Shown: positions 4,217 through 33,600 of the stretch, piece by piece
How positions within the stretch are numbered: position 1 is the first letter of the stretch
How the letters are laid out: each line of letters begins with the position of its first letter
DNA from: a virus
Virus genome (UHGV): UHGV-1682877
DNA: 64,000 nt
Strand: one strand, 5' to 3'
The notes under the pieces: model-generated
Databases searched by the model: none
What the model saw: the letters and a program-made list of their open reading frames with translations, nothing else
Told to the model about the DNA's origin: nothing
Position numbers and translations under genes: made by a program

Positions 4217-4223
4217 ATAAAAC

Positions 4224-4262: not shown

Positions 4263-4286
4263 AATTTTATGGTATAATATTTATAG
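4250..4286 (+). promoter_or_regulatory. repeated promoter family copy
   Basis: ttgacc-17-tataat then atttatagaaaataaaaaaggag. Confidence 0.5.
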
Positions 4287-4311
4287 AAAATAAAAAAGGA
4301 GTTTTAAAAGT

Positions 4312-6346: not shown

Positions 6347-6352
6347 GAAGAT

Positions 6353-6385
6353 AAAGAGGAGAATTTTTTCTCCTCTTTTTTATTA
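6353..6385 (+). terminator. rho-independent terminator
   Basis: aagaggagaa/ttctcctctt hairpin plus TTTTTT. Confidence 0.6.
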
Positions 6386-6423
6386 CCATAATTATAATAA
6401 CATATTTTTTGCTAAAAATAAAG

Positions 6424-6480
6424 TTTGAAACTTTTAGCTTGGCTTAGGTCGGGGCGGAGACGTGCGAATAAAAATAGCTT
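6424..6480 (+). promoter_or_regulatory. conserved GC-box element (copy 1 of 3)
   Basis: tttgaaacttttagcttgg...tcggggcggagacgtgcgaataaaaatag; near-identical copies at ~13916 and ~48250. Confidence 0.45.
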
Positions 6481-6514
6481 TAACAAATTTTTTAAAGGAT
6501 AAAGGAGAATAACA

Positions 6515-7291
6515 ATGTTATATAGTTTAAATACAAGACTAAAAAAATTAATGCCAGATGAAATCAAATGTCAAATAAATAGATTAGGAGACATTTTTGA
6601 TTTAATTAAAGAAAATCCAGACATTAGATGTAATATTCAATACACTAATATGGGCGAATTATCTGAAAAAAAACTGGATGAACAAATTGATTTCATTAAA
6701 GAAGTGGCAAAAGATTATACAATAGCTGTAATTAATTTCCAAGATTTGCGGAAATTAAAAGCAAAAGGCTATAATGTATATTTAGATTTGCCGGTTTCAG
6801 ATTGGGAAACTTTTAATAATTTAAAAAATATTGGCGTTTCAGATATTTACATTGACGGAGCTTTAGGATTCCAAATGGAGAAAATTGGAAAAGCAAAAGG
6901 AAAAATAAAGATTAGGGTTACTCCGCATATGTCGCCAAATGCGCAATGGTCATCTTCAGATAATGAAAATTCTTTTTATATTCGACCAGAAGATATAGAT
7001 AATTATTCTAAATATGTAGATATTTTAGACTTTAGAGATAACAGCAAAGATGCAGAAGAAACTTTATTCAATATTTATAAAAGGAAGATTTTTCCTTTTG
7101 ATTTAAATAATTTAATTAGACAACTGAATTTACCAACTAATAATATTTATATTGCAAATAGTTTTTGTTCAAACAGATTGAATTGCGGGCAAAGATGTCA
7201 GGAGCCTGATATTTCTTGTCATTTATGTAGAAATGCAATTTTAATTTCTAATAAAATGAATGAATATATTAGTTTAACGGAAAAAAATTGA
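6515..7291 (+). CDS. hypothetical protein with Cys-rich C-terminus
   Basis: ORF track. Confidence 0.45.
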   Translation: MLYSLNTRLKKLMPDEIKCQINRLGDIFDLIKENPDIRCNIQYTNMGELSEKKLDEQIDFIKEVAKDYTIAVINFQDLRKLKAKGYNVYLDLPVSDWETFNNLKNIGVSDIYIDGALGFQMEKIGKAKGKIKIRVTPHMSPNAQWSSSDNENSFYIRPEDIDNYSKYVDILDFRDNSKDAEETLFNIYKRKIFPFDLNNLIRQLNLPTNNIYIANSFCSNRLNCGQRCQEPDISCHLCRNAILISNKMNEYISLTEKN

Positions 7292-7342
7292 TTTTCTTTA
7301 AAAAATATAATATAATATTTATATAATAAAAGAAATAATAAG

Positions 7343-7377
7343 TTTTATAAAACTCACCAAAGGTGAGTTTTATAAAA
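7343..7377 (+). terminator. terminator-like hairpin (same core as 33550)
   Basis: aaactcacc aaa ggtgagttt hairpin. Confidence 0.45.
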
Positions 7378-7400
7378 CAAATAAGAAAGATGGGGATGAT

Positions 7401-8126
7401 ATGAAACTAAATAATTATGATTATAGATTTTTAAAAAAGTTGTTACAGTCTACACAGCATGAACTATTAGAATTTTTACCCAAAGCGCTTAATGCCATTT
7501 ACCATAAAGAAGATATTATTATTACCAATAATTATATTTGCGCTAAAGGTGATATCCCAGTAGCTTTAGTTGCTCATTTAGATACCGTATATCCAGAACC
7601 ACCTAAACAGATTTTTCATGATCCAGAATATAATATTATTTGGGGAACAAATGGTTTGGGTGCAGATGATAGAGCAGGCGTTTTTGCTATTTTAAATATT
7701 TTAGAATGTGGCTATAAGCCTACTGTAATTTTTTGTTGCGATGAAGAAAATGGCGGTTTAGGTGCTTATCAACTGACTAAAGATTTTTCAAAACCTTTCA
7801 CCAATTTTGAAATGCTTATTGAGCTAGACCGCCAAGGAACAAAAGATGCAGTATATTATTCATTAAATAACACTGATTTTGAAAATTATATCAATAATTA
7901 TGGATTTGAAACTGCGGTAGGTGTATTCACAGATATTTGTATTCTAGGCCCAATTTGGGATGTTCCCGCAGTTAATCTTTCTGTTGGTTATTTTAATGAA
8001 CATAGTTATGCGGAAATGCTTTATTACCCAGCTTTATTTGATACTATTGATAAGGTTTGTTTAATTTTAGAAGAAAAGAGGACAAAAGACTTTGAATTTA
8101 CAGAAATCACTGGAAGCAGCAATTAA
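7401..8126 (+). CDS. M20/M28/M42-type zinc metallopeptidase-like protein
   Basis: AHLDTV, GADDRAG, DEENGGLG motifs. Confidence 0.55.
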   Translation: MKLNNYDYRFLKKLLQSTQHELLEFLPKALNAIYHKEDIIITNNYICAKGDIPVALVAHLDTVYPEPPKQIFHDPEYNIIWGTNGLGADDRAGVFAILNILECGYKPTVIFCCDEENGGLGAYQLTKDFSKPFTNFEMLIELDRQGTKDAVYYSLNNTDFENYINNYGFETAVGVFTDICILGPIWDVPAVNLSVGYFNEHSYAEMLYYPALFDTIDKVCLILEEKRTKDFEFTEITGSSN

Positions 8127-21263: not shown

Positions 21264-21349
21264 GTGGGCGTGATGAAATAGGAAAACATATCGCACTTAA
21301 AATGCGCTGCTAATCTAGCTTGTGGGTTCGAGTCCCATCGCCCACACCA
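21264..21349 (+). tRNA. tRNA-Leu (anticodon TAA)
   Basis: acceptor gtgggcg/cgcccac, loop cttaaaa, long variable arm, CCA. Confidence 0.65.
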
Positions 21350-21350
21350 T

Positions 21351-21390
21351 CTTTAAAACTGATACTCTTTACTATTAGTTTTAAAGATAA
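21351..21390 (+). other. perfect 12 bp inverted-repeat hairpin between tRNAs
   Basis: atctttaaaact ... agttttaaagat. Confidence 0.5.
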
Positions 21391-21413
21391 CAATGAACTT
21401 GAGTTTACTGATA

Positions 21414-21491
21414 TGCGTCTGTAACTCAACTGGATAGAGTAACTGCCTTCTAAGCAGTAAGCCAGGGGTTCGAGTCCCTTCAGGCGTACCA
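21414..21491 (+). tRNA. tRNA-Arg (anticodon TCT)
   Basis: loop cttctaa, T-arm aggggttcgagtccctt, CCA. Confidence 0.65.
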
Positions 21492-21676
21492 AGCAGAACT
21501 ATAATAGGCAACAAAAGGAAATAGCTGATGTGAAAGGCATCTTGTCTTGCTGACATGACAATAAACTTTGAACGGGCGTATAATGCGTATCGTGCCTGCG
21601 GGTGTAGAGTCAGAAAAGTAGGGGAATAATTGAGGAGCAGCTATAGGTGAGGCCCCACCTCCACCTTCCTTAATAT

Positions 21677-21768
21677 GGGGCAATGGCAGAGTTTGGCTTA
21701 TTGCACTTGTCTTGAAAACAAGCAAACTAGCAATAGTTTCACTGGTTCAAATCCAGTTTGCCCCGCCA
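21677..21768 (+). tRNA. tRNA-Ser (anticodon TGA)
   Basis: acceptor ggggcaa/ttgcccc, loop cttgaaa, long variable arm, CCA. Confidence 0.65.
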
Positions 21769-21772
21769 ATAA

Positions 21773-21846
21773 GCAGGTATAGTTTAATGATAGAACTCTG
21801 GACTTCCACTCCAGCGATGCGGGTTTGATTCCCGTTACTTGCTCCA
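21773..21846 (+). tRNA. tRNA-Gly (anticodon TCC)
   Basis: loop cttccac, T-arm gcgggtttgattcccgt, CCA. Confidence 0.65.
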
Positions 21847-21909
21847 TAAAGATACTCACAGCAATTTATTTTTTATAATGGGTATAAAAAAATAAAGTAT
21901 CTTGTATTT

Positions 21910-21985
21910 GCTAACGTGGCGCAACAGGTAGCGCAGCGGCCTTGTAAACCGCAGGTTAAGAGTTCAAGTCTCTTCGTTAGCTCCA
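21910..21985 (+). tRNA. tRNA-Thr (anticodon TGT)
   Basis: acceptor gctaacg/cgttagc, loop cttgtaa, CCA. Confidence 0.65.
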
Positions 21986-21987
21986 AT

Positions 21988-22063
21988 GGTTCGCTAGTTC
22001 ATTAGGTAGAACACTTGCCTTTTAAGCAAGATGTGCTGGGTTCAAATCCCAGGCGAGCCACCA
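21988..22063 (+). tRNA. tRNA-Lys (anticodon TTT)
   Basis: loop cttttaa, T-arm ctgggttcaaatcccag, CCA. Confidence 0.7.
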
Positions 22064-22437
22064 TTAGTCTTATCATACAGACGTAAAATAAATGAGTACC
22101 CCAGATAATGCTGAACTGGGTATCCGGGTATCGGGAGAATTAGTCTGGCAACTGTTGAAGCGACGATACTGCGTGACCAGGCATAAGGGCGACCTAAGTC
22201 GTTAGCTATGGGTAAACAGGTTGATAGCCGCATAGTAAAATGTTTCCTTGCGTCATTAAAATGCAAGGCGTTATAGGAGAGACGGCGGAGCATTACTCAT
22301 CTCCACTCCTTCTGCTACGAGAAGTAGAAAATCAAGGCTTCTGAGAAATGCTAATGAGAATGGTCAACCTCTGATTAAAAAAGGACTAAAGCTAGCTTAG
22401 GTTTTAGGTTATCCTCCTTACGAGGGAAAACCTTATT
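22064..22437 (+). ncRNA. structured non-coding region, candidate novel ncRNA
   Basis: ~370 nt with no RBS-supported ORF, locally GC-richer, multiple hairpins (ccttgc/gcaagg, cttct/agaag, nested ggtt-cctc/gagg-aacc). Confidence 0.3.
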
Positions 22438-22522
22438 TGCCAGAATGTTGGAATTGGTAGACAAAGAAGTCTCAAAAACTTTCGCTTTATGCGTGCGGGT
22501 TCGAATCCCGCTTCTGGTACCA
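22438..22522 (+). tRNA. tRNA-Leu (anticodon CAA)
   Basis: acceptor gccagaa/ttctggt, loop ctcaaaa, long variable arm, T-arm gcgggttcgaatcccgc, CCA. Confidence 0.65.
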
Positions 22523-22734: not shown

Positions 22735-24258
22735 ATGGAAAATAAGATGCTTAATATTTTGAAGGAAAAGAATACTCATTCTATCACTGAGAACGGCGGT
22801 TTGACTTATAATTCTACTATGAATGGAATTATGGATTTGTTTGCTCTTGGTGGTGCTTATCGAAATCGCTCAGATGATGATTGTATTTTTCTTTTTAAGA
22901 AGGCTTTTGAGGAAGATATTTCTTATGCTTTGAAGTGTCTCTTTTATTTGCGAGACGTACGCGGTGGACAGGGAGAACGCAGATTTTTTAAGGTCGTAAC
23001 TTCTTGGTTGGCAGTTAATCACACCGAGGAAATGCGTAGAAATCTGAAGTATGTTCCTGAGTATGGTCGCTGGGATGATTTGTATGCTTTTGTTGATACT
23101 CCGCTTGAGGCAGATGCTTTTAAGACTATGTATCATCAGCTTGCTCTTGATGTTCAGTGTAAAACTCCTTCTCTTTTGGCTAAGTGGTTGAAGTCTGAAA
23201 ATACTTCTTCTGCAGAATCTCGTATGCTTGGAGCTAAAACCAGAATGGCTTTTAATATGTCTCCTAAGCAGTATCGCAAGATTCTCTCTATTCTTCGTGA
23301 AAGAATTAGAGTTTTGGAAAGACTGATGAGTGAAAACCGTTGGGATGAAATTGAATTTGATAAGATTCCTTCTAAGGCAGGTCTAAAGTATCGCAATGCT
23401 TTTGCAAAGCACGATATTGAAAGAGAAAAGTCTAATAAGGTAACTTATGAAGAGTTTGTAAAGGATTCTAATACTAAGGTCAATGCTGATACTTTGAATC
23501 CCGCAGATGTAGTTCATGCTGTTGTTTCTAAATTTCCCTATTATAGAGGAAATTTTAATGGAACTGATGTGGAGAGAGCTGCACTCAATAAGTATTGGGA
23601 TAATCTAAAGGATTATTTTAATAATGCTGTTTTTGACGGTGTTGCTGTCGTTGATACTTCTGGTTCTATGTGTGGTTTTTATGGTAGTGAGAAAACTATT
23701 GCACCTATTGATGTAGCTATTTCTCTTGGTATGTATTGTGCTGAGAAGTGTAATCCCAATTCTCCCTGGTATGGACATTATATTACTTTTTCCCGAACTG
23801 CAAGATTGGTACCTGTTGAAGGTATTGATTTTGTTGATAAGGTGCGTAGAATTTATCAAAAGAATCTTTGTGAGAATACCAACATTAAAAGTATTTTTGA
23901 TTTGCTATTGAGCAATGCTATTAAATATAATATTCCTAATGAAGAAATGCCTAAAAACATTGTAATCATTAGTGATATGGAATTTGATTATTGCGCTGGT
24001 TACTATAATAGTGATGAATACAAGTCTGAAATGGAAAAGATTATGCAAGTTTGGAACTCTCATGGTTACACTACTCCACATTTGATTTTCTGGAATGTTG
24101 ACGCTCGAAATGATAATATTCCCATGAAGATGAAGGATGGTATTACTTTTATTTCTGGTTATTCTGCGGTAACTTATGAAATGTTGATGACTGGTAAAAC
24201 TGGTTTTGATTTGGTTTTGGAAAAGTTGAACAATAAGAGATATGAGGTAATCAAGTAA
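22735..24258 (+). CDS. vWA/MIDAS-domain protein with helical N-domain (DUF2828-like; possibly TROVE/Ro60-like)
   Basis: DTSGSM MIDAS motif near residue 305; N-terminal ENGGLTY...DLFALGGAYR...RDVRGGQGERR. Confidence 0.5.
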   Translation: MENKMLNILKEKNTHSITENGGLTYNSTMNGIMDLFALGGAYRNRSDDDCIFLFKKAFEEDISYALKCLFYLRDVRGGQGERRFFKVVTSWLAVNHTEEMRRNLKYVPEYGRWDDLYAFVDTPLEADAFKTMYHQLALDVQCKTPSLLAKWLKSENTSSAESRMLGAKTRMAFNMSPKQYRKILSILRERIRVLERLMSENRWDEIEFDKIPSKAGLKYRNAFAKHDIEREKSNKVTYEEFVKDSNTKVNADTLNPADVVHAVVSKFPYYRGNFNGTDVERAALNKYWDNLKDYFNNAVFDGVAVVDTSGSMCGFYGSEKTIAPIDVAISLGMYCAEKCNPNSPWYGHYITFSRTARLVPVEGIDFVDKVRRIYQKNLCENTNIKSIFDLLLSNAIKYNIPNEEMPKNIVIISDMEFDYCAGYYNSDEYKSEMEKIMQVWNSHGYTTPHLIFWNVDARNDNIPMKMKDGITFISGYSAVTYEMLMTGKTGFDLVLEKLNNKRYEVIK

Positions 24259-24268
24259 ATAGTATTTT

Positions 24269-24297
24269 AAGAGAGGTAAAATTACCTCTCTTTTTTT
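24269..24297 (+). terminator. rho-independent terminator
   Basis: agagaggtaa/ttacctctct hairpin plus TTTTTTT. Confidence 0.65.
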
Positions 24298-24312
24298 ATA
24301 AGGAGGATTAAA

Positions 24313-25374
24313 ATGATATTATTAAATGATGATAATAGACACAGAGATTTTACAGGTGTAACTCGTTTTCACAATGCAGGTTATTTTGGAGAAAGAGTAA
24401 ATGCCGCAAGTGGAGAAACCTGGGATGTTAATAGATATAATCCAGATAATTTAGTAAGAAATTGCTTAAAGGATAAACAATTTTCAGATGAACATCCAAT
24501 AAATACTGCGGCAACATTTTTTCAAGTAGCTCCAAAAGCTCATCTATTTATGCTTTATTCCATTGATGGCAGTTATGGTAGTGGAGATAATTATAACTCT
24601 AAATTTTTTAATGAATCAGTAGAAATTATTGAAAAATATAATATTACTAATATGTTTACCTCTTTAAATTGTAGTAGACATACTAAATTTTTTGAAGATT
24701 TAAAAAATTGGTATATTAAACATCCTAGTTTTAAACCCTTTTGGTGCGCAGGAAATGATTCTTCTAAAAAATATAATCCAATTATGGAAATTGAAGAAGT
24801 AATTGGTGTAGCCGCTTATACTTTAATGGTAAATGGTACAGTAAATCCTGCTTATTATTCTAGTATTAGTAGTTATGTAGACTTTTCTGCACCTAGTATG
24901 ATTTATTTAAATCCGCAAGCTACAAAACCAGACGCAGCAACTTATTCCAATTCTGGTACTTCTTTTTCTACACCTTGGTTATGTGGAATGAGCTGTTTAG
25001 TAGATGATTTCTTTATTGATAAAAAAGGATTACCTCTAACAAGAGAAGGAATGATTCAATTCTTTAAAGATAATTGTAAAGATATAGGCGATAAGGGTAT
25101 TGATCCAAAAACAGGATTTGGCGCAGTAATTTTACCTGAACCAAATTCTATTGATATTGATAAATATTATAATATTGGGAGGACAAATATGAGTACATTA
25201 GATAAATTTAAAGATAAAAATGATATTTCTAATTGGGCTAAAGCAAGTATTGAATGGGCTGTTAATACAGGTATTCTTCAAGGTGACGATAAAGGCTATC
25301 TTTTACCCAAAGCTTACCTAACTAGAGAGCAAATGGCAGTTATGTTAGAGCGTTTTAAAAATATTATAAAATAA
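24313..25374 (+). CDS. subtilisin-like serine protease with C-terminal SLH-like wall-binding domain
   Basis: SNSGTSFSTPW catalytic Ser motif; C-terminal WAVNTGILQGDDKGYLLP...LTREQMAVML. Confidence 0.6.
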   Translation: MILLNDDNRHRDFTGVTRFHNAGYFGERVNAASGETWDVNRYNPDNLVRNCLKDKQFSDEHPINTAATFFQVAPKAHLFMLYSIDGSYGSGDNYNSKFFNESVEIIEKYNITNMFTSLNCSRHTKFFEDLKNWYIKHPSFKPFWCAGNDSSKKYNPIMEIEEVIGVAAYTLMVNGTVNPAYYSSISSYVDFSAPSMIYLNPQATKPDAATYSNSGTSFSTPWLCGMSCLVDDFFIDKKGLPLTREGMIQFFKDNCKDIGDKGIDPKTGFGAVILPEPNSIDIDKYYNIGRTNMSTLDKFKDKNDISNWAKASIEWAVNTGILQGDDKGYLLPKAYLTREQMAVMLERFKNIIK

Positions 25375-25380
25375 TTTTAA

Positions 25381-25410
25381 GGGAGTCAAAATGACTCCCT
25401 TTTTATTTTT
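25381..25410 (+). terminator. rho-independent terminator
   Basis: gggagtca/tgactccc hairpin plus T-run. Confidence 0.65.
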
Positions 25411-25479
25411 TTAAAAAAATATTATATAATATATATAGAAAGTTAAGGAATAAATAAATAAGAAAGAAGTTGAAATTTT

Positions 25480-25749
25480 ATGATTTATAGAAAAAGCAAA
25501 TACAGTAAAGATCAGACTGCAATTTGGCAAGGTGAAACTGCGGTTATTCTTGCTCAATCAGCAGAAGCTATGACAATAGATGAAATTAAAAACAATAGTA
25601 TTCAATTAACAGGTGTTTCTACTCAAAAAATGGCTAGGATTCTTGGGCATTTGATTGAAATGGGTATGGTAACAAAAGCAAAAAGCAAAAGTGGAAAAAT
25701 GGTCTATAAATCTTTGGCAGTAATGGAAATGCAAGGTTATGAAATTTAA
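25480..25749 (+). CDS. hypothetical protein
   Basis: ORF track. Confidence 0.4.
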   Translation: MIYRKSKYSKDQTAIWQGETAVILAQSAEAMTIDEIKNNSIQLTGVSTQKMARILGHLIEMGMVTKAKSKSGKMVYKSLAVMEMQGYEI

Positions 25750-25768
25750 ATAAAGGAGTTTGATATTT

Positions 25769-27037
25769 ATGGCATACTATGGTTTAGTAACTAAAATTGA
25801 AAATGTAAGAAAAGACCCTAATTCTGATAGACTCTATTTGGCTGATTGTTTTAGAGAAGGAGTTATTGTAGGCCCTAATATGAAGGAAAGCGAGTTGGTT
25901 CTTTATCTTCCTACTGATGGAGCTATTGAGCGTTGGTTTGGTGATGAGTTTAAACTTTTCCGCAAGAATTTAGATGGTACCGCGCAAGGTGGTTATTTGG
26001 AAAATAATGCTCATATTAGAGCAATTAAGCTAAGAGGTAATGAATCTTCTGGTATTGTTATTTCTTATTCTACTATTGTTGAGCATTTTGGTGAGCAAAA
26101 TTGGAAAGATGGCGATCAGGTCACTGAAATTAATAATAAGCTATTTTGTTATAAATATATTCCTAAACCTTCGGCTATTCCTCGCACTACTCCTAAAACT
26201 TCTTATAAAGGTCGTAAAGCAGCTGGAATTAAGTATCCTGATTTTGCCATGCATATTGATACTGCCCAATTAGCTTACAATCTTGGAATTTTTAGACCTG
26301 GAGATAAAATTAATCTAACCCTTAAAATGCATGGAACTAGCCAGCGTAGTGCATATACTTGGGCAGAATATCCTATGTCTTGGTTTAGAAAGCTATTTCA
26401 CATGAAACCTAAGAGAAAGTTGCAGTATGTTTTAGGTACTCGTAGAACTGTTGTTACTACTGATGGGGTAGGTTATTATGGTAATGACAAATTTAGATTT
26501 AGTCACCATGAAGCTTTAAAACCTTATCTCGATGAAGGTATGGAAGTTTTTTATGAAGTAGTTGGTTGGTATGGAGCAAAAGAAAATGAAACTATTATGC
26601 CAATTGTAGATAATAGTAAAATTAATGACAAGAAATTTATGAAAAAGTTTGGTAAGTATACTACTTTTTCTTATGGTTGTACTCCTGGTCATTCTGCAAT
26701 GTGGATTTATAGAATTACTTCTCATAATGGTGAATATGAATATTCTCCAGAGGAAATTACTACTTGGTGTAATGAATATGGTTTTAATCGTGTTCCTATT
26801 ATTGAGGATTTTGAATTTACTACTGTTGATGACTTGCTCGCTAAAATTGACAAATATTTTGAAGATATTGTTGACCCAGTTGGTTTAACTCATGTTAAAG
26901 AAGGTGTAGTAGTTAGAATTGCTAATAGACGTACTTTTACTGCATTAAAACAAAAAACCTGGGAGTTTAAAGTCCTTGAAGGTCTAGTTAAAGATACTGA
27001 AACCCAGCCCGATATGGAAGAAGCACAGGAGGTTTAA
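25769..27037 (+). CDS. Rnl2-family RNA ligase with N-terminal tRNA-binding OB domain
   Basis: N-terminal LVTKIENVRKDPNSDRLYLADCF (tRNA-binding fold); KMHGTS motif I like T4 Rnl2 KIHGTN; EGVVVR motif IV; KQK motif V. Confidence 0.6.
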   Translation: MAYYGLVTKIENVRKDPNSDRLYLADCFREGVIVGPNMKESELVLYLPTDGAIERWFGDEFKLFRKNLDGTAQGGYLENNAHIRAIKLRGNESSGIVISYSTIVEHFGEQNWKDGDQVTEINNKLFCYKYIPKPSAIPRTTPKTSYKGRKAAGIKYPDFAMHIDTAQLAYNLGIFRPGDKINLTLKMHGTSQRSAYTWAEYPMSWFRKLFHMKPKRKLQYVLGTRRTVVTTDGVGYYGNDKFRFSHHEALKPYLDEGMEVFYEVVGWYGAKENETIMPIVDNSKINDKKFMKKFGKYTTFSYGCTPGHSAMWIYRITSHNGEYEYSPEEITTWCNEYGFNRVPIIEDFEFTTVDDLLAKIDKYFEDIVDPVGLTHVKEGVVVRIANRRTFTALKQKTWEFKVLEGLVKDTETQPDMEEAQEV

Positions 27038-27039
27038 AT

Positions 27040-27489
27040 ATGACTTTAGAAATTATGCACAATGACATGATGCAGGCTTTGAAGAATGGTGATACTCAAA
27101 AGAAGAATGTACTTTCCAATATGATTGGTGAAGTACAAAAAGCAGCAATTACGCCAAAAGGCAGAATTGAAATTACCGAAGAGCTTGTTAATAATACTTT
27201 AATCAAGTATCAAAAGATGATTCAAGAAATGATTGATACTTGTCCAGAAAACCGCAAAGAGTTATTTATTCAATATAATCTTGATATGGCTGTTGTAAAG
27301 CAGTATGCACCACAACTTCTCACTGACAAAAAAGCAATTAAAACTCAAATTGAAAAGATGCTTGCAGAAAATGAGCTTGATGCAATTAAGGCAAATAAAG
27401 GTAGAGCAATGAAACTTTTTGCTCCTGTTTTTAAGGGTAAGGCAGATATGAAAATTGTTAATCAAATTGTGTCGGAGGTAATGACCTAA
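27040..27489 (+). CDS. YqeY/GatB-domain protein
   Basis: architecture matches YqeY family, C-terminal GKADMKIVNQIVSEVM. Confidence 0.6.
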   Translation: MTLEIMHNDMMQALKNGDTQKKNVLSNMIGEVQKAAITPKGRIEITEELVNNTLIKYQKMIQEMIDTCPENRKELFIQYNLDMAVVKQYAPQLLTDKKAIKTQIEKMLAENELDAIKANKGRAMKLFAPVFKGKADMKIVNQIVSEVMT

Positions 27490-27490
27490 T

Positions 27491-27670
27491 ATGTTTCATT
27501 TAATAATGACGATTATTTGGGGTATCTTAATGTGTGTTAATGGAGTTTTGCTATGTGAAACAATTTTACACAATAGATATAAAGAAAAGAAAATGCGTAT
27601 TTTCTGGTTCCTTTTTTGCGTATTTTGGTTTATTTTTGAAATCTTGCGGCTCGGAGGCTTTATTCTTTGA
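27491..27670 (+). CDS. small hydrophobic protein (about 59 aa), putative
   Basis: ATG-initiated ORF below track threshold; two hydrophobic segments. Confidence 0.3.
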   Translation: MFHLIMTIIWGILMCVNGVLLCETILHNRYKEKKMRIFWFLFCVFWFIFEILRLGGFIL

Positions 27671-27885
27671 AAATTGTAATTGATAAAAAAGATTTTATGG
27701 AATATATTCGTGCTATGGTAGATAAGGATTTTGACAATTTTATGTTTGCAAATCCTTATGCGACGAAAGAAGATTATATTAATTTATATTATTCTTTTGA
27801 TACAATTCATAATTTAGATGATATTTGTGAAGAAGAATATTGTAAAAGAATTATTAATGGTGAAATAGAAGAAATTGAAGATTGA
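27667..27885 (+). CDS. hypothetical protein
   Basis: ORF track; start may be ATG about 27699. Confidence 0.35.
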   Translation: MKIVIDKKDFMEYIRAMVDKDFDNFMFANPYATKEDYINLYYSFDTIHNLDDICEEEYCKRIINGEIEEIED

Positions 27886-27890
27886 AAGAA

Positions 27891-27937
27891 TTAAGGGCAA
27901 AGATTAAGATCTTTTGCCCTTAATTTATTTTTTTAAA
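27891..27937 (+). terminator. rho-independent terminator
   Basis: ttaagggcaaa/tttgcccttaa hairpin plus T-run. Confidence 0.6.
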
Positions 27938-27985
27938 AATTTATATTATAATATATATAGAAAGTTAAGAAAGGAATTGATATTT

Positions 27986-28699
27986 ATGAATAAGAGTAAA
28001 GTTTATTGTTTTACTGACCTTCATGGCAATTCAAATTTGTTTAAGCAGATTAAAAATTTCATTCAAGCAGAAGATAAAGTGTTCGTGCTGGGTGATGTAA
28101 TTGACAGAGGGACAGAAGGTTGGAAAATACTTAAAGAAATTTTAAAAGATGAAAGATTTACTCTTCTTAAAGGAAATCATGAACAAATGTTAGTAGATTC
28201 TGGAAGAGAATTTTTAAAAAATGAAAGATGTCTATATGGAGATGATATTTATCGTCACATGAATAATGGAGGTTTATCTACTTTACTAGACTGGTCTAAA
28301 GAAAAAAATGCTATTGAGTATTTAAATTTAATTAATAAACTTCCAGTTTATGAACAATACACTAATAAAAATGGAATTAAAATTCATTTAAGTCATGCAG
28401 GTTTTTCTCCTAATAATATTTCTGGTGATGAATTTGATTTTCTTTGGAATAGATTACATTATAAATTTAGATGTTTAATTAATCCAAATGAATTAATTAT
28501 TCATGGCCATACCCCAATTCCTCTAATGATAGAAGATATAGGAGAATTTCGCAATCCTCCCAAATATGAAGGTGGAGCTTGTTGGTATAATAATAATCAA
28601 AAGGTTAATCTTGATTTAGGTACTCATTGGAGTAAGCAAATTATCCTTTTTGATTTAGATACTTTTGATGAACATATCTTTTCTGCTCAAGGAGAATAA
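27986..28699 (+). CDS. calcineurin-like metallophosphoesterase (PP2A/ApaH-like)
   Basis: FTDLHGN, VLGDVIDRG, KGNHE, IIHGHTP. Confidence 0.8.
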   Translation: MNKSKVYCFTDLHGNSNLFKQIKNFIQAEDKVFVLGDVIDRGTEGWKILKEILKDERFTLLKGNHEQMLVDSGREFLKNERCLYGDDIYRHMNNGGLSTLLDWSKEKNAIEYLNLINKLPVYEQYTNKNGIKIHLSHAGFSPNNISGDEFDFLWNRLHYKFRCLINPNELIIHGHTPIPLMIEDIGEFRNPPKYEGGACWYNNNQKVNLDLGTHWSKQIILFDLDTFDEHIFSAQGE

Positions 28700-28701
28700 T
28701 T

Positions 28702-29106
28702 ATGATACTATTAATACTAGGATTAACATTACCTTTTACTGGAGCAATAATTTTAGGTTGTTTTATATATGATTATGATGAATATAAACTAGATTGTAAA
28801 ATTGTAAGGAAACATAAATATGTAGTTTTAAAATTAAAAGAATTTATTTCTTTCTATAATTTAAGTCCAGAAAATTATGAACTACAAAAATATTCGGTTG
28901 TTTTTTTAAAGCCTTTCTCTACACGAAAATATTTAACAGACAATAATATACGTATTATTTTTACAAATTATGTAGAAATGTTAAAATATAAAATTTGGAA
29001 AAAGACAGAAATTAAAAAAATAAATACAGAAAAAGAAAGAAAAGAACTTAAAGAATATTTTGAAATTGTAAAAAAACAAATTGAGGAGTTTGATAAAAAT
29101 GTCTAA
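28702..29106 (+). CDS. hypothetical membrane protein
   Basis: N-terminal hydrophobic segment. Confidence 0.4.
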   Translation: MILLILGLTLPFTGAIILGCFIYDYDEYKLDCKIVRKHKYVVLKLKEFISFYNLSPENYELQKYSVVFLKPFSTRKYLTDNNIRIIFTNYVEMLKYKIWKKTEIKKINTEKERKELKEYFEIVKKQIEEFDKNV

Positions 29107-29374
29107 AGACCCTAGAAAATATGAAATGCATGATTTTTATTGTATGAATTGCGGAAAGAAGTCAATGTCAATTCCTCGATTAAGAGGACGTTTTAGAGAA
29201 GTTGGGCATAAGAAAGTTATGTATTGCCCTCATTGTAAAGAAACTGTTAATATGGTAGAATGTAGAAATGATGAAGAAGCGTATAATTTTAAACTAGATT
29301 TTGAAGAAGGACTTTTTAAAGAAGAAGCACAAAATAGTATTTCTTATGTAAAGGAGTTTGGTATTTATGATTAA
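29099..29374 (+). CDS. zinc-ribbon protein
   Basis: CMNCG ... CPHCK. Confidence 0.45.
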   Translation: MSKDPRKYEMHDFYCMNCGKKSMSIPRLRGRFREVGHKKVMYCPHCKETVNMVECRNDEEAYNFKLDFEEGLFKEEAQNSISYVKEFGIYD

Positions 29375-29870
29375 TTTGCATATTCTTTGCGGTATTCCTG
29401 CTTCCGGTAAATCTACCTGGGCAAAACAACAGAATGGTAAAATTATCTCAAGAGATGAAATCCGCAAGAATTATGTAGGCGAAAATCCTGGAAAAAATTA
29501 TTTTAGTAAAGAAAAACAGGTATATAAAGAAATGATTGCAAATATTAAAATCGCAATTAAAGAAAATGTAGAAAATATTTATATAGATGCGACTCATATT
29601 GATATTGTTTCAAGAACTAAACTTTTAAACAATTTTTTTAATCTGAAAGATAAGAATAATATTAATCTTACTTTTGATTATTTTCCTATTCTTTTAGATG
29701 TTGCTTTAAAAAGAAATTCTGAAAGAGAAGGTTTTGCTAAAATTCCAGAAGAAGCAATAAAAAATTTTTATTTTAAATCTTCTATTCCTTCCAAAGATGA
29801 GATGAATAAATATCTTGATTGGGGTTTTCATAATGTGAATACTATTTTGCATTATACTGAGGAGGTGTAA
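29367..29870 (+). CDS. pnk: polynucleotide kinase (T4 Pnk kinase-domain-like)
   Basis: GIPASGKSTWA P-loop; KRNSEREGFAKIPEEAIKNFY parallels T4 Pnk KRNSKRGTKAVP..MY. Confidence 0.7.
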   Translation: MINLHILCGIPASGKSTWAKQQNGKIISRDEIRKNYVGENPGKNYFSKEKQVYKEMIANIKIAIKENVENIYIDATHIDIVSRTKLLNNFFNLKDKNNINLTFDYFPILLDVALKRNSEREGFAKIPEEAIKNFYFKSSIPSKDEMNKYLDWGFHNVNTILHYTEEV

Positions 29871-29872
29871 TA

Positions 29873-30415
29873 ATGGTTTGGTTTACCAGTGATCTTCATC
29901 TAGGCCATAATAAGCCCTTTCTTTATGAACCAAGAGGGTTTAAGAATATTCAAGAACATGATAACGCAATTATTGAAAATTGGAATAAAATTATTCGTCC
30001 TAATGATAAAGTTTATGTGCTTGGCGATTTGATGCTAAATGATAATGAAGCAGGAATTGAAAAAATTAAACAATTAAAAGGACAAATTTATGTAGTTAGA
30101 GGAAACCATGATAGTGAAGTTCGTGTAAATTTATATAATAATTGTAACAATATTATTAAAGTAACTGAAGGTCAATTTTTAAGATATGGTAAATATCATT
30201 TTTATTTAAGTCATTATCCTACACTTTGTAGTAATTTTGATAATGAGAAACCTCTTAAAGCAAGAATGATTAGTTTGTGCGGACATTCTCATAGTCAGGA
30301 TGCTTTTGCGAATTGGGATAAAGGTCTTATTTATCATGTAGAATTAGATGCTCATAATAATTTCCCTGTTTCTATTGATTCGATTATTAAGGATATTAAA
30401 AATAGAATTAAGTAA
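29873..30415 (+). CDS. calcineurin-like metallophosphoesterase, candidate 3'-phosphatase partner of Pnk
   Basis: TSDLHLGH, VLGDLMLND, RGNHD, LCGHSH. Confidence 0.7.
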   Translation: MVWFTSDLHLGHNKPFLYEPRGFKNIQEHDNAIIENWNKIIRPNDKVYVLGDLMLNDNEAGIEKIKQLKGQIYVVRGNHDSEVRVNLYNNCNNIIKVTEGQFLRYGKYHFYLSHYPTLCSNFDNEKPLKARMISLCGHSHSQDAFANWDKGLIYHVELDAHNNFPVSIDSIIKDIKNRIK

Positions 30416-30421
30416 TAAATT

Positions 30422-30453
30422 AAAGACCCTAGAGTGCTTTTGCTCTAGGGTCT
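30422..30453 (+). terminator. terminator-like hairpin
   Basis: agaccctagagtgc tttt gctctagggtct. Confidence 0.45.
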
Positions 30454-30586
30454 TCGTGCATACTCGTGGCAGACCGTGTCGCCGATTTTTCGCGCCTCTA
30501 GCAATTTTTTACGCAAATACCAAGAATTTTATTTTTCTCAGAATTTATGATATAATTATAATATAAAATAAGATAGGAGAATTTTA

Positions 30587-31024
30587 ATGAGTTTAAGAAA
30601 AACAATTAATCTTTTACCCGTAGAATTTAATTACACAAATAATTCAATTGAGGCAATAGTTTATTATGAACGAAAATACTATACTGGGACTGCTACTTGT
30701 CATCCTGATGATATGGACTTTTTCTCAACCAAAGTAGGTCAAACAATAGCTCACAAAAGAGCAATTATTAATACTTTAAAAGATATTAAAGAAAGAGCTA
30801 ATATCGAATATAACGCTGTAAAAAGATTTTATAACGATATTTTAAGAGAAAATAAAAAATGTGAGTATACAATCATTATTAAAGAAATAGTAAGACTAAA
30901 ACGGCAAATTAATAAGTATTTGGGTTATATTAAAACAGAAGAAAAAGAATTAAATACATATTTAAAAGCTCAAAGTAAAGTAATTACTTCTCTAAAAAGA
31001 CAAAGAAAGGCCATAAATAATTAA
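30587..31024 (+). CDS. hypothetical protein
   Basis: ORF track. Confidence 0.45.
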   Translation: MSLRKTINLLPVEFNYTNNSIEAIVYYERKYYTGTATCHPDDMDFFSTKVGQTIAHKRAIINTLKDIKERANIEYNAVKRFYNDILRENKKCEYTIIIKEIVRLKRQINKYLGYIKTEEKELNTYLKAQSKVITSLKRQRKAINN

Positions 31025-31078
31025 TTATTTTATTTATTTTTTTAATCTAATAAAGAAAGATAATTTATTTTATCTTAT

Positions 31079-32350
31079 TTGAACAATAGGAGAGTGGAAA
31101 TTATTATTAAATTCTACGATACTTGTAGTCTTTTATTAGCCGGGGAATCAGCTTTTGAAGATAATGAAAAATTTATCATTTCTTCTATTACTTTAAAAGA
31201 ATTAGAAAGAATTAAAACCGCGGCAAATAAAGATTCTGATATAAAATATTCCGCAAGACTTTTGCTTCATTTATTTGAAAAATATCCAAATAATTATTCT
31301 GTTAAAATTCATCAAATAAATTATGAATACATTTTAGATAAAATGAATTTTGATATTAATGATGATGCTAGAATTTTGTCTGATGCTTGGAATGAATTTG
31401 AAACAAATAAATGTTTAGAATTTATAACTAATGATTTAAGTTTAAAACATATTGCTTTATGTTTGTTTCCTAAAGAAAATGTTTCTTCTGTTGAAGAAAA
31501 TTTAGATACTTATAGTGGACTTGCAGAAATTACTGCTAGTGAAGAATTAATTTCTGAATTTTATGAAAATCCTAACTATAATCATTTTAATCTTAAAAAA
31601 GGAGAATATTTACTTCTAAAAAATCCTGATAATTTTGATGAACTTATAGATGTGCGGGTTTGGACAGGAGAGACTTATCGTTATTTAAAATTTCCTACTT
31701 TTGATTCTACCTGGTTTGGAAAAGTACAACCATATCAAGGAGATATATATCAAAAATGTGCTTTTGATAGTTTAGCTAATAATAAAATTACTTTACTACA
31801 AGGCCCAGCAGGAGTAGGAAAATCTTACATTTCTTTAGCTTTTTTAATGTATATGTTAGAAAAAAATAGAATAGATAAAATTATAATCTTTTGTAATACA
31901 GTGGCAACTATTAATTCCGCTAAATTAGGGTTTTACCCAGGTACAAAAGACGATAAATTACTTGACTCGCAAATTGGTAATATGCTTTCTGCCAAATTAG
32001 GCGGTAAAGAAGGTGTTCTTCGTATGATGGAAGAAGATAAATTAGTTTTATTGCCTTTTAGCGATATTAGAGGTTATGATACTAGCGGAATGAACGCAGG
32101 TATTTATATAACAGAAGCACAAAATTTAGACAGAACTTTAATTAAATTAGCTCTTCAACGTATTGGTGAAGATTGTATTTGTATTATTGATGGTGACGCT
32201 AAAACACAAGTTGACTCATTAGCTTATTCTGGTAATAATAATGGTATGAGAAGAATGTCTAAAATTTTTAGAGGTTCTGATATTTATGGAGAAGTAACTT
32301 TAAATAATATTCATAGATCTAAAATAGCAGAACTTGCAGAATTAATTTAA
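31079..32350 (+). CDS. phoH: PhoH-like ATPase with N-terminal PIN domain
   Basis: Walker A LLQGPAGVGKSY; PIN-like N-terminus. Confidence 0.75.
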   Translation: MNNRRVEIIIKFYDTCSLLLAGESAFEDNEKFIISSITLKELERIKTAANKDSDIKYSARLLLHLFEKYPNNYSVKIHQINYEYILDKMNFDINDDARILSDAWNEFETNKCLEFITNDLSLKHIALCLFPKENVSSVEENLDTYSGLAEITASEELISEFYENPNYNHFNLKKGEYLLLKNPDNFDELIDVRVWTGETYRYLKFPTFDSTWFGKVQPYQGDIYQKCAFDSLANNKITLLQGPAGVGKSYISLAFLMYMLEKNRIDKIIIFCNTVATINSAKLGFYPGTKDDKLLDSQIGNMLSAKLGGKEGVLRMMEEDKLVLLPFSDIRGYDTSGMNAGIYITEAQNLDRTLIKLALQRIGEDCICIIDGDAKTQVDSLAYSGNNNGMRRMSKIFRGSDIYGEVTLNNIHRSKIAELAELI

Positions 32351-32365
32351 TAATAATAATAACTA

Positions 32366-32397
32366 AGAGCTAGAATAAAATCCTAGCTCTTTTTTTA
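32366..32397 (+). terminator. rho-independent terminator
   Basis: agagctag/ctagctct hairpin plus TTTTTT. Confidence 0.65.
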
Positions 32398-32420
32398 AAA
32401 CAAAAGAAAGGAGAGTGTAT

Positions 32421-33215
32421 ATGAATACACAGCCTGTATCTTATTTACAAACAGATGCAAGATGGAAAAATATTAGTTATTCAGCGAAAGGTGAATCAAC
32501 TACAATTGGCGCTTCTGGCTGCGGCCCCACCGCAATGTCTATGGTTTTAGCTACATGGGCAGATAAAAAAGTTACTCCAAAAACTGAATGTGCTTGGGCT
32601 TTAGCGCATGGTTATAAAGCTCCTCACCAAGGAACTTATTATGGATATTTTAAGCCTGCTGCTGCACGATACGGTTTAACAGCCTATATGTTGAATGGTG
32701 CAAATATTTATGGCAATAGTTCTAGTAAATATCATAATTTAGCAAAAGCTGAAATTGATAAAGGTAATTTAGTTATAGCTTGTATGGGCAAAGGATTATG
32801 GACAAGTAGTGGTCATTTCATTTTAGTGTGGAATATTCAAGGAAATACTATTTATATTAATGACCCTAATAGTACAAAAACCGCACGCACTAGAGGTAAT
32901 TATAGTCTTTTCAAACAACAGGTAAAATATTACTTTATAATTGAAAAACCTAAAACAAATAATAATAATAATAAACCTACAATTAAACAAGAGGAGGATG
33001 AAGACATGACTCAAGAAAAATTTAATGAAATGATGAATAATTATTTAGTTCAATTAGCTAAACAAAATGCTGATTGGGGTAAAGATGAATTAAATTGGGC
33101 AGTTTCTATGGGACTAATTAAAGGTGATGAAACTGGCAAACTAATGCCTAACAAGTTTTTAACTAGACTAGAAGGCGTCACTATAATGAAGAGATTATAT
33201 GATAAACTTTGTTAA
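32421..33215 (+). CDS. C39-like (papain-fold) peptidase with SLH-like wall-binding domain, endolysin candidate
   Basis: GCGPTAMSMVL Cys motif, SGHFILV His; C-terminal WAVSMGLIKGDETGKLMP...LTRLEGVTIM. Confidence 0.55.
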   Translation: MNTQPVSYLQTDARWKNISYSAKGESTTIGASGCGPTAMSMVLATWADKKVTPKTECAWALAHGYKAPHQGTYYGYFKPAAARYGLTAYMLNGANIYGNSSSKYHNLAKAEIDKGNLVIACMGKGLWTSSGHFILVWNIQGNTIYINDPNSTKTARTRGNYSLFKQQVKYYFIIEKPKTNNNNNKPTIKQEEDEDMTQEKFNEMMNNYLVQLAKQNADWGKDELNWAVSMGLIKGDETGKLMPNKFLTRLEGVTIMKRLYDKLC

Positions 33216-33540
33216 AAAGAATAGAAACAAAAGAAAAAAGAAAAAAGAATTTTCAAAAGTTCTTTTAGCTCAAGAATCTGCTTTAATATGGGTTCATTCT
33301 CTTGCTCATATTATTCTGGCATTTTATTGCATTCACGAAGGATTTACTGGCTCTTTGCCTTGGTTGGCTGCGGAAGCCAGTTTACCTTGGGCTGCTTATG
33401 CAGTTAGTCAAGCTTTTTATTACAATAAAGCCACTCGTGAGAATACTAAAAATGGCATAAAATATGAAACTGTGATGAATAATCTGACGCCACAAACGCC
33501 CACTTCTTCCGATGAACCGGATGTTTTTGGGCCGATTTGA
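33199..33540 (+). CDS. holin-like membrane protein
   Basis: two predicted TM helices, charged C-terminus, overlaps lysin gene end. Confidence 0.45.
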   Translation: MINFVKKNRNKRKKKKEFSKVLLAQESALIWVHSLAHIILAFYCIHEGFTGSLPWLAAEASLPWAAYAVSQAFYYNKATRENTKNGIKYETVMNNLTPQTPTSSDEPDVFGPI

Positions 33541-33549: not shown

Positions 33550-33600
33550 GGGTTATAAACTCACCAAAGGTGAGTTTATAACCCTTTATTTGTTTTATTT
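33550..33600 (+). terminator. rho-independent terminator (same hairpin core as 7343)
   Basis: gggttataaactcacc aaa ggtgagtttataaccc plus T-rich tail. Confidence 0.6.

Follow-up and report, generated by a model that had tools for sequence, protein, structure and literature searches.

ORF B and ORF C, which encode a C39-like peptidase and a holin-like membrane protein, form a terminator-bounded endolysin–holin cassette. The best joint explanation of the data, which we consider probable, is that this cassette is complemented by an accessory subtilase, ORF A, and that free S-layer homology (SLH) modules from the two enzyme genes assemble with the full-length chains into trimers. The window (the whole 64-kb stretch of DNA that was analysed) is best explained as the section devoted to replication and nucleotide metabolism in a phage genome of approximately 138 kb, low in G+C, with an anaerobic gut Clostridia host. 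The initial annotation placed the system at 24313–33215. Both enzyme genes are real and lie inside this range, but some dozen unrelated genes separate them, and the range ends short of the ORF C stop codon at 33540. The genes examined and the hairpins that surround them are as follows; ORF B may alternatively be read from 32415.

24269..24292, plus strand: terminator-like hairpin just 5′ of ORF A, 10-bp stem followed by a T-run (hairpin scan)
24313..25374, plus strand: ORF A, 353 aa, subtilisin-fold peptidase with a single C-terminal SLH repeat (Pfam S8 and SLH; AF2/Foldseek)
25379..25401, plus strand: terminator-like hairpin, 5 nt past the ORF A stop codon (hairpin scan)
32365..32397, plus strand: hairpin AAGAGCTAG/CTAGCTCTT with a T-run behind it, in the stretch that separates the PhoH gene from ORF B (read from the sequence)
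32421..33215, plus strand: ORF B, C39-like papain-fold Cys peptidase, then a disordered linker and a module made of a helix and an SLH repeat (Pfam, AF2, Foldseek)
33199..33540, plus strand: ORF C, 113 aa, holin-like membrane protein (hydrophobic segments; overlaps ORF B by 17 nt)
33550..33584, plus strand: strong terminator-like hairpin with a 16-bp stem, closing the lysis cassette (hairpin scan)

ORF B has two possible starts, GTG at 32415 (266 aa) and ATG at 32421 (264 aa). The ATG is probably the true start, as AGGAG lies 7 nt upstream and the length agrees with that of a 264-aa database entry (P0084). The protein matches Pfam Peptidase_C39_2 with an E value of 1.3e-12 (49 bits against a cut-off of 24; PF13529 and PF03412). 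In the AF2 model the catalytic domain has a pLDDT above 90, and the linker (residues 182–198) one below 50. The best Foldseek matches are the peptidase domains of PCAT1, LahT150 and ComA together with 3ERV, with TM scores of up to 0.71 on the target. Homologues numbered 1487, and Cys36 and His134 (GTG numbering) are invariant both in 14 and in 41 sequences. The family match, the papain-like fold and the conserved Cys/His pair place ORF B among the C39-like proteins. It has the fold and the Cys-His active site in common with 3ERV and the exporter C39 domains, but differs from PCAT1, ComA and LahT150 in its low identity to them (12–19%), in having neither an ABC transporter nor a double-glycine leader substrate, and in its apparent role as an endolysin beside a holin. 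Assignment of ORF B to C39 proper, as a bacteriocin leader peptidase, was rejected: the protein stands alone, carries a wall anchor and has a holin-like neighbour, and no adjacent transporter gene was seen.

The proposal that the C39-like protein is the endolysin is supported by its relatives. The family adjoins holins in many phages and prophages, as in Bajarodcaudo virus 5, where an r1t holin lies directly upstream of a C39-family endolysin, and the catalytic domain is swapped on a common module. Judged from its sequence, ORF B has the layout expected of an endolysin, with a catalytic and a wall-binding domain, a position beside a holin-like gene and no secretion signal. The Cys-His papain-fold domain would cut peptidoglycan peptides, while the one SLH repeat would hold the enzyme on the wall. 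In the literature searched no lysin of the C39_2 or S8 type with a demonstrated bond specificity was found.

ORF C had been described as an overlapping, two-transmembrane (TM), holin-like gene that follows the peptidase, and the 17-nt overlap agrees with this. Of the two TM segments, the first (TM1, residues 27–46) is strongly hydrophobic, whereas the second (TM2, about 53–75) is weaker in this phage yet conserved. A basic N-terminus precedes TM1, a GFTGSLPWL loop joins the two segments and the C-terminus is polar. It is thus a small protein with one or more TM segments and a hydrophilic, charged terminus, encoded next to an endolysin, as is general for holins. Beyond noise, none of 13 members of the ORF C family matched any Pfam family, and the PHROG matches are all of unknown function, so that the family is unannotated and outside the described holin families. 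Homologues of ORF C adjoin C39 endolysins, upstream or downstream, in 27 other loci. Genes of this family also flank two lysins that bear Amidase_2, in P0059 and in Dulem virus 33, where the gene follows an amidase carrying an ORF B-type module. As a holin, ORF C would permeabilize the membrane and so give the signal-less ORF B access to the wall. The hairpin at 32365..32397 was reported by the scan on the minus strand only, probably because the plus-strand loop, 8–9 nt as read, lies at or beyond the 8-nt limit.

Both enzymes end in an SLH repeat. The Pfam SLH profile (PF00395, gathering score 20.8) matches residues 298–342 of ORF A (E 1.5e-9, 38.1 bits) and residues 220–253 of ORF B (E 4e-5, 23.9 bits), and both modules align to SLH1 of Bacillus anthracis Sap (3PYW/6BT4), with E values of 5e-14 (family profile) and 1.5e-6. 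By BLASTP the two C-termini share 15 identities and 29 positives over 43 residues (E 2e-9), and no other part of ORF A aligns with ORF B. The initial annotation is therefore borne out in describing a C-terminal module that is common to two otherwise unrelated enzymes and resembles SLH. An HMM of the module, run against all ORFs of 40 codons or more on the two strands of the window, found just these two copies. The conserved Trp, G[IL]xxG and TRAE motifs bind the ligand in SLH domains (PMC12285257); they appear as W308, GILQG and TREQ in ORF A and as Trp, GLIKG and TRLE in ORF B, with the Ala of TRAE substituted in both alike. The monomer model of the ORF B module is of low confidence (pLDDT 50–69). 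On the strength of its sequence relatives the ORF B-type module can be regarded as a general anchor of lysins; in 19 distant representatives it is preceded by one or other of seven catalytic domains (Amidase_2, CHAP, GH25, Phage_lysozyme2, M15, M23 and C39_2).

[quoted passage not shown] However, these cellular proteins have three tandem repeats per chain, and in a library of protein-cluster representatives the module finds three matches in each classical SLH protein, whereas ORF A and ORF B carry one repeat each rather than the three of a single-chain pseudo-trimer. Any SLH trimer must therefore be intermolecular. [quoted passage not shown] LysBT1 and the endolysins of Paenibacillus thiaminolyticus phages (bioRxiv 10.64898/2026.09.23.753664) resemble ORF B in having one C-terminal SLH anchor with the W, GIxxG and TRAE motifs; SLH trimerization has been proposed for them and wall binding demonstrated. 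These Bacillales enzymes are classical hydrolases, amidases among them, for which no internal start or free SLH product has been reported, whereas the catalytic domains of ORF A and ORF B are subtilisin-like and C39-like and the host clade is gut Clostridia. Set against LysBT1-type modules, that of ORF B has an extra N-terminal helix, which is absent from the ORF A module.

ORF A has a subtilisin fold. Pfam Peptidase_S8 matches it with an E value of 4.7e-6 (26.6 bits, cut-off 21.8), covering only the C-terminal half, and the family profile aligns residues 16–225 with subtilisin BPN′ (E 2.7e-16). The AF2 model (pLDDT 94.2) superimposes on BPN′ in Foldseek with an E value of 1.6e-15 and a TM score of 0.73. 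Fold and family match together place the protein in S8. In the profile alignment Glu35, His61, Asn148 and Ser217 fall on Asp32, His64, Asn155 and Ser221 of BPN′, all four being either invariant or conserved to at least 90% across 49 sequences. The canonical Asp-His-Ser triad of S8 is thus replaced in the ORF A family by Glu-His-Ser, with the oxyanion Asn148 kept and Glu35 at least 90% conserved in 20 as well as in 49 sequences. The family therefore shares with BPN′ and the intracellular subtilisins (MEROPS S8) the fold, the conserved His and Ser and the oxyanion Asn, but differs in the Glu for the catalytic Asp, in its fusions to wall anchors, amidases or NAGPA-like domains and in its occurrence in phage lysis cassettes. 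A reading of the N-terminus revealed neither a signal peptide nor a propeptide; intracellular subtilisins are likewise not known to carry a signal peptide or a long propeptide. As hairpins at 24269 and 25379 flank it, ORF A is a self-contained transcription unit.

The suggestion that the subtilase acts at the cell surface also gains support from relatives, which have LysM, SH3, Cu-amine-oxidase-like or SLH anchors and in some cases lie in lysis cassettes. P0064 is a subtilase fused to Amidase_2 and SLH, directly 3′ of Phage_holin_1, and P0059, a subtilase–amidase lysin, is followed by a holin-like gene of the ORF C family. The order S8-SLH, Phage_holin_1, Amidase_2 is found in loci L173, L177, L179 and L180, and locus L175 reads XkdX, S8-SLH, XhlA, Hol44 holin, CHAP+SLH endolysin. 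This places the L175 gene in the exact slot of xepA, which encodes an accessory lysis-cassette protein in the PBSX late operon (xkdX–xepA–xhlA–xhlB–xlyA); the likeness is positional only, XepA being pentameric, non-enzymatic and without similarity to subtilases (PMC6834076). Because the subtilases of smaller phages share cassettes with a holin and an amidase or CHAP endolysin, or are fused to an amidase, ORF A is likely, by gene context, to be an accessory lysis enzyme. In this phage it lies 7 kb from the holin gene amid RNA-repair-like genes, and its lysis role thus rests on the relatives. ORF A would be a second signal-less wall-directed enzyme, freed at lysis to work beside the peptidoglycan hydrolase, and its substrate would be a wall-anchored or S-layer protein, or else a peptidoglycan peptide.

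It is possible, if doubtful, that ORF A is instead a true second endolysin, whose subtilisin-like domain cuts peptidoglycan, at a peptide bond in the stem or the cross-bridge, and not an S-layer or wall protein. The S8-like domain takes the N-terminal catalytic place in the S8-like + Amidase_2 + SLH lysins, a position occupied by CHAP in staphylococcal lysins, and the LysM and SH3 anchors to which S8 domains are joined are typical of peptidoglycan hydrolases. However, every lysis cassette with a stand-alone S8-SLH also has a canonical amidase or CHAP endolysin, so that S8-SLH would not be needed as a peptidoglycan hydrolase. No peptidoglycan-cutting S8 member was found in the literature searched, and we know of none.

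In each enzyme gene an internal Shine–Dalgarno sequence (SD) and an in-frame ATG lie between the catalytic domain and the module. These internal sites were absent from the initial annotation, as were the single-copy state of the SLH, the Glu in place of Asp in the subtilase triad and the lysis-cassette context of the subtilase relatives.

25178..25191, plus strand: internal SD GGAGG of ORF A (written GGG-AGG), 6-nt spacer, in-frame ATG 25189 (Met293)
25189..25374, plus strand: 61-aa free SLH protein predicted for ORF A from this SD-ATG; Pfam core 25204–25338
32993..33008, plus strand: internal SD GGAGG of ORF B (written GAG-GAG-GAT), 8-nt spacer, in-frame ATG 33006 (Met198)
33006..33215, plus strand: 69-aa free wall-binding protein predicted for ORF B, N-terminal amphipathic helix plus SLH (Pfam core 33072–33173)

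These are the only deep in-frame GGAGG-N5-9-ATG sites in the 64-kb window; the remaining 13 such sites lie at gene starts, or at gene ends or intergenic positions where a downstream gene begins. It is rather unlikely that the two sites are by-products of acidic or Gly-rich linkers, or programmed ribosome pauses that give the catalytic domain time to fold ahead of anchor synthesis, with the full-length proteins alone being made and forming homotrimers as LysBT1 does. In favour of this reading, LysBT1 homotrimerizes and a free module has not been reported for it, SD-like sequences inside genes can act as sites of translational pausing, and the linkers contain much Glu and Asp, with codons that resemble SDs, acidic linkers favouring GA-rich codons. 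The SDs are, however, written in rare codons (GGG is 4.6% of Gly, AGG 3.4% of Arg and GAG 16.6% of Glu), and the start codon is conserved besides the purine tract: the module-start Met is invariant in the 19 distant representatives, the SD-ATG spacing is held at 5–11 nt throughout the relatives, and gene callers have independently called stand-alone ORFs of 68–72 aa from this Met in other assemblies. The ORF B-type site is present in 49 of 55 viral relatives, in which sites occur at 0.0217 per codon in the linker versus 0.0011 elsewhere, and in 44/57 prophage relatives. The 13 prophage relatives that lack the site carry the same enzyme on non-SLH C-terminal modules, and serve as an internal control. 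The feature is also found in the Dulem amidase, P0059 and P0005. In related subtilase genes an in-frame ATG with an SD-like element recurs at the SLH boundary; only 3 of 15 genes pass a strict 5-mer SD test and the others have GAGGTGA or GAGGGG-type elements, several having only a 4-mer or non-canonical SD, which favours the by-product reading. Since the internal sites are unique in the window, recur in relatives and vanish with non-SLH anchors, each gene probably also yields a free SLH protein.

Functional SLH units are three-fold, and so one full-length chain and free modules would probably trimerize; the free SLH may assemble with the enzyme into a three-fold unit. The trimer would bind a wall ligand, either a pyruvylated secondary wall polymer or peptidoglycan. 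Endolysins made as two polypeptides by internal starts are established in enterococcal and clostridial phages (PMC9430671), and include Lys170 and LysIME-EF1 (Enterococcus), CTP1L, CD27L and CS74L (Clostridia), and LysP7951 (PMC9430671, PMC7098653, PMC4777826). In these, as in ORF A and ORF B, an internal SD with a start codon in frame separates the catalytic from the binding domain, and the free binding domain multimerizes with the full-length chain, whereas the short products of ORF A and ORF B are predicted. Their binding domains are unrelated to SLH and their stoichiometry is 1:3, 2:2 or 1:5, as against the three-fold assembly expected here from SLH structure. A 2022 survey of two-polypeptide endolysins contains neither SLH nor C39 (PMC9430671).

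The anchor type and internal-start design that ORF A shares with the endolysin ORF B also bear on a quite improbable alternative, in which ORF A plays no part in lysis here but is a moron, surface-remodelling or entry enzyme, for example a virion-borne S-layer opener at infection or a stripper of receptors against superinfection. Its organization as a terminator-flanked autonomous unit, placed in the region for replication and RNA repair and 7 kb away from the holin gene, fits this reading, and tail association is conceivable by position, as small-phage S8-SLH genes follow tail-fibre and XkdX genes. However, Pfam gives S8 and SLH only, so that no virion-attachment domain was detected, and with no evident signal peptide either ORF A would have no way to the wall until the holin acts. 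The subtilase fusion proteins, moreover, directly adjoin holins. An accessory enzyme released at lysis remains the preferred reading.

The SLH-like modules had been taken in the initial annotation to point to a host with an S-layer or secondary cell wall polymer; prophage relatives occur in gut Clostridia MAGs. It is very improbable that the host belongs to the Negativicutes, diderm Firmicutes in which the single SLH would attach to polyamine-modified peptidoglycan, in the manner of OmpM, instead of to a wall polymer of the S-layer type. The low G+C of the genome fits such a host, and a trimerizing single SLH is typical of the outer-membrane tethers SlpA and OmpM (PMC12285257), but no record so named occurs among the 80 genome loci with C39-family relatives and no outer-membrane-disrupting (spanin-like) gene was seen beside the cassette. 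Most of these 80 loci are from MAGs of Oscillospiraceae, Ruminococcaceae, Lachnospiraceae or unclassified Clostridia, and a few records bear the labels of other taxa.

ORF A (24313–25374, + strand) and ORF B (from 32415 or 32421 to 33215, + strand) encode two otherwise unrelated enzymes that each end in a single SLH repeat. Pfam assigns Peptidase_S8 and SLH to ORF A and Peptidase_C39_2 and SLH to ORF B, with all four matches above the curated cut-offs. The likeness between the two proteins is confined to the final ~45 residues (35% identity, E 2e-9), and both modules align to the first SLH repeat of B. anthracis Sap, the structure of which has been solved. The Trp, G[IL]xxG and TR(x)E motifs are kept in both modules; such SLH motifs (Trp, G[IL]xxG, TRAE-type) have been described as ligand-binding (PMC12285257). 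A module HMM gave no third copy in the window. The SLH-like C-terminus that the initial annotation had proposed for both enzymes is upheld by the Pfam SLH matches, the mutual alignment and the alignment to Sap, although the range it gave, 24313–33215, holds about a dozen unrelated genes and stops short of the end of the holin-like gene (ORF C, 33199–33540, + strand). Overall, observation and interpretation are both supported, the system being one of lysins with a single SLH anchor.

The C-terminal unit of ORF B, a 69-residue module formed from a helix and the SLH repeat, was searched against 1.84 billion protein representatives. This exhaustive search was used in place of a word-indexed protein search, which returned 5 matches with the same module, and gave 7,979 matches (~8,000 clusters) of two kinds. 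The first kind shows a single match across the whole module at the C-terminus of the protein. The second consists of classical three-repeat proteins with three matches each, covering the SLH core only. Among the best matches at least seven kinds of catalytic domain precede the module; those found in 19 single-module representatives are Amidase_2 (13), CHAP (3), GH25, Phage_lysozyme2, M15, M23 and C39_2. Judged from sequence, the single-SLH module is a general lysin anchor. Lysins of this type are already known, having been described experimentally only recently, and their anchors were recognised only in 2025–2026, from a small number of Bacillales enzymes; in phages of gut Clostridia this design is very common. 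New here are the C39-like and the Glu-His-Ser subtilisin-like catalytic domains, the conserved internal start and a holin family not annotated before. For gut anaerobes that are difficult to culture, the modules offer binding probes and lysin parts ready for use. One protein of the representative library (P0256, 134 residues) consists only of two tandem 'MTQxxF...SLH' modules, and several ORFs of 68–72 residues correspond to one module each; these could be wall-binding proteins in their own right or fragments of genes.

The model of ORF A (pLDDT 94) superposes on subtilisin BPN' with an E value of 1.6e-15. Aligning the family profile with BPN' places Glu35 on Asp32, His61 on His64, Asn148 on Asn155 and Ser217 on Ser221, and across 49 family members these four residues vary little or not at all. 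The conservation of the Glu-His-Ser arrangement across the family argues for an enzyme that is predicted, from the sequences, to be active with an altered triad. The Glu-His-Ser domain represents an uncharacterised catalytic module of lysis cassettes. Neither a signal peptide nor a propeptide is evident when the N-terminus is read by eye.

In the AlphaFold2 model of ORF B the catalytic domain is confident (pLDDT above 90), residues 182–198 form a disordered linker, and the C-terminal module, of three helices, is predicted with moderate confidence. The closest structures are bacteriocin-exporter C39 peptidase domains and 3ERV, a C39-like protein (12–19% identity), and Cys36 and His134 are invariant in the family. 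This family is very large (1487 matches) and includes prophage genes in gut Oscillospiraceae, Ruminococcaceae, Lachnospiraceae and related MAGs; among genome contigs no exact host match for ORF B was found, the best being 58% identical over the whole protein. No signal peptide is evident in the N-terminus, read by eye. A role in bacteriocin processing was rejected, as the gene stands without a transporter and beside a holin, and other lysin domains can take the place of the catalytic one.

ORF C overlaps ORF B by 17 nt, and the pair is bounded by two terminator-like elements:
32365–32397, hairpin and T-run read from the sequence, upstream bound
33550–33584, hairpin and T-run, downstream bound
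The ORF C protein begins with a strongly basic N-terminus, followed by an evident transmembrane segment (27–46), a conserved GFTGSLPWL turn, a weaker second hydrophobic segment and a polar tail. Its family has no Pfam match, and its PHROGs matches are of unknown function only. Homologues adjoin C39-type endolysins in 27 other loci, upstream in some and downstream in others, and are also found 3' of a PGRP-type amidase with the same module in Dulem virus 33 and 3' of a subtilase+amidase lysin (P0059). Bajarodcaudo virus 5 encodes a C39 protein, 47% identical and with a different C-terminal domain, after an r1t holin. On the strength of these gene contexts we assign the role of endolysin to ORF B and that of its holin to ORF C. 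The overlap, the terminator-like bounds and the lysis context of the relatives agree with the functions first proposed for the pair. Although Pfam has no model for it, the holin-like family (alignment A6) is widely encoded next to endolysins in phages of gut Clostridia.

Each of the two SLH genes contains an in-frame Shine–Dalgarno (SD) element and ATG at the start of the SLH module:
ATG 33006, + strand, ORF B (Met198), GGAGG with 8 nt spacing
ATG 25189, + strand, ORF A (Met293), GGAGG with 6 nt spacing
Across the window, the + strand holds 15 matches to GGAGG-N5-9-ATG. Of these, 13 lie at gene starts, at gene ends or in intergenic DNA ahead of a downstream gene start, and only those in ORF A and ORF B lie deep inside genes. 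The codons that form the internal SD elements are rare in the window (GAG 16.6% of Glu, GGG 4.6% of Gly, AGG 3.4% of Arg); the native ORF B element is GAGGAGGAT, for which the SD-silent form would be GAAGAAGAT, and that of ORF A is GGGAGG, with GGTCGT as its SD-silent form. Among viral relatives, 49 of 55 C39 genes (non-identical, with simple architecture) have a strong SD and start in the linker, at 20 times the density seen in the rest of the same genes. Prophage relatives carry them in 44 of 57 cases, and the 13 lacking them end in C-terminal domains other than SLH. The same feature is seen in the Dulem amidase, in P0059 and in a subtilase (P0005), and subtilase relatives keep the boundary ATG behind GGGAGG, GAGGAGG, GAGGTGA or GAGGGG. 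Furthermore, the module-start methionine is invariant among the 19 distant representatives, and ORFs of 68–72 residues beginning at this methionine have been called by gene callers in other assemblies. The rarity of the sites, the rare codons, the conservation, the invariant methionine and the independent gene calls together suggest that the internal sites are probably real starts, supplying free SLH modules.

SLH units are three-fold, so one full-length catalytic chain with two free modules would be the simplest assembly. If real, the conserved internal start would solve how a one-repeat anchor satisfies the three-fold binding requirement of SLH, and this stoichiometry class would be new among two-polypeptide endolysins. 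Cloning of such lysins could yield two products. Enterococcal and clostridial endolysins use an internal start to produce a free wall-binding domain that multimerises with the full-length enzyme, and the 2022 survey of internal-start endolysins mentions neither SLH nor C39 (PMC9430671). [quoted passage not shown]

The anchors seen in ORF A relatives are of the SLH, LysM, SH3-like or Cu-amine-oxidase-like types, and fusions to Amidase_2 or a NAGPA-like domain occur in some. One amidase fusion (P0064) directly follows Phage_holin_1, and P0059 has XkdX on one side and an ORF C-type holin on the other. A stand-alone S8-SLH gene is also found within the lysis cassettes of 27–69 kb phages, in two orders:
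XkdX - S8-SLH - XhlA - Hol44 holin - CHAP+SLH endolysin
S8-SLH - (small TM protein) - Phage_holin_1 - Amidase_2
The position of S8-SLH between XkdX and XhlA is the slot of xepA in PBSX (PMC6834076). A canonical peptidoglycan hydrolase always accompanies the stand-alone gene in those cassettes, and the subtilase is therefore read as an accessory lysis enzyme. In this phage ORF A forms its own unit between terminators, 7 kb from the holin. The wall anchors, amidase fusions and lysis-cassette relatives favour the earlier suggestion that the subtilase acts at the cell surface, and a capsid-maturation protease was rejected on the same grounds. The literature searched contained no paper on an S8-type lysin. 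The protein encoded at a related locus (L182, IMGVR_UViG_3300008096_000011, 3983–7867) is 1294 residues long and combines a pair of subtilisin-like Glu-His-Ser domains with a NAGPA-like domain and SH3-like repeats, ending in an SLH repeat.

Candidate substrates are a peptidoglycan peptide and the S-layer or wall proteins that SLH domains hold on the same ligand. A joint reading, put forward tentatively and rather unlikely as a whole, is that phages of S-layered Clostridia carry an extra lysis function, a wall-anchored Glu-His-Ser protease directed at SLH-anchored proteins, with protease and endolysin each forming a heterotrimer. The subtilase would arrive at the wall once the holin fires and would cleave SLH-anchored S-layer or wall proteins, loosening or clearing the layer that shares its ligand, while two separately translated SLH modules would join each catalytic chain to restore a three-fold unit with one catalytic head. 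An attack on S-layer proteins would represent a new lysis step in S-layered Gram-positives, and can be likened to the action of spanins on the outer membrane and of LysB on the mycolate layer. Sequence, fold and gene order are the level at which the system is established, and all beyond them we infer.

The window is AT-rich (~30% G+C), and nearly all of its transcription up to about 60 kb lies on the + strand. At about 60350 gene orientation changes from + to -, and the GC-skew changes sign at the same place. GenBank phages gave neither near-identical nor close DNA; an IMG/VR contig (IMGVR_UViG_3300045988_145614, 137,669 bp) matches the window, with protein identities of 100% for ORF B and 97% for ORF A. 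A promoter scan found 77 candidates against a shuffled expectation of 67 ± 8, which is not above shuffled, so no promoter is claimed. Rfam returned tRNAs only. The gene content includes a replication and nucleotide-metabolism set with an anaerobic ribonucleotide reductase, RNA-repair-like genes and 17 tRNA genes in two clusters (10813–13823 and 21264–22522). The NrdD-like reductase (54225–56513) is consistent with a strictly anaerobic host. One tRNA (13040–13112) is given by ARAGORN as 'tRNA-???' with a four-base anticodon (tgaa), yet Rfam recognises it as a tRNA at 53 bits. The RNA-repair-like set (22735–32350) lies between the two SLH genes and adjoins a tRNA cluster:
22735–24258, TROVE/Ro-like protein (DUF2828+DUF7788)
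25760–27037, RNA ligase
27040–27489, YqeY
27914–28699 and 29873–30415, two metallophosphoesterases
29358–29870, AAA_33 kinase
31079–32350, PIN+PhoH
This set may be a tRNA/RNA repair counter-defence module. Two small ORFs among the metabolism genes (27491–27670 and 28702–29106) have hydrophobic N-terminal or double hydrophobic segments, with no link to the lysis cassette, and a small zinc-finger ORF (29081–29374) matches phrog_1257, annotated as 'ribosome associated inhibitor A'.
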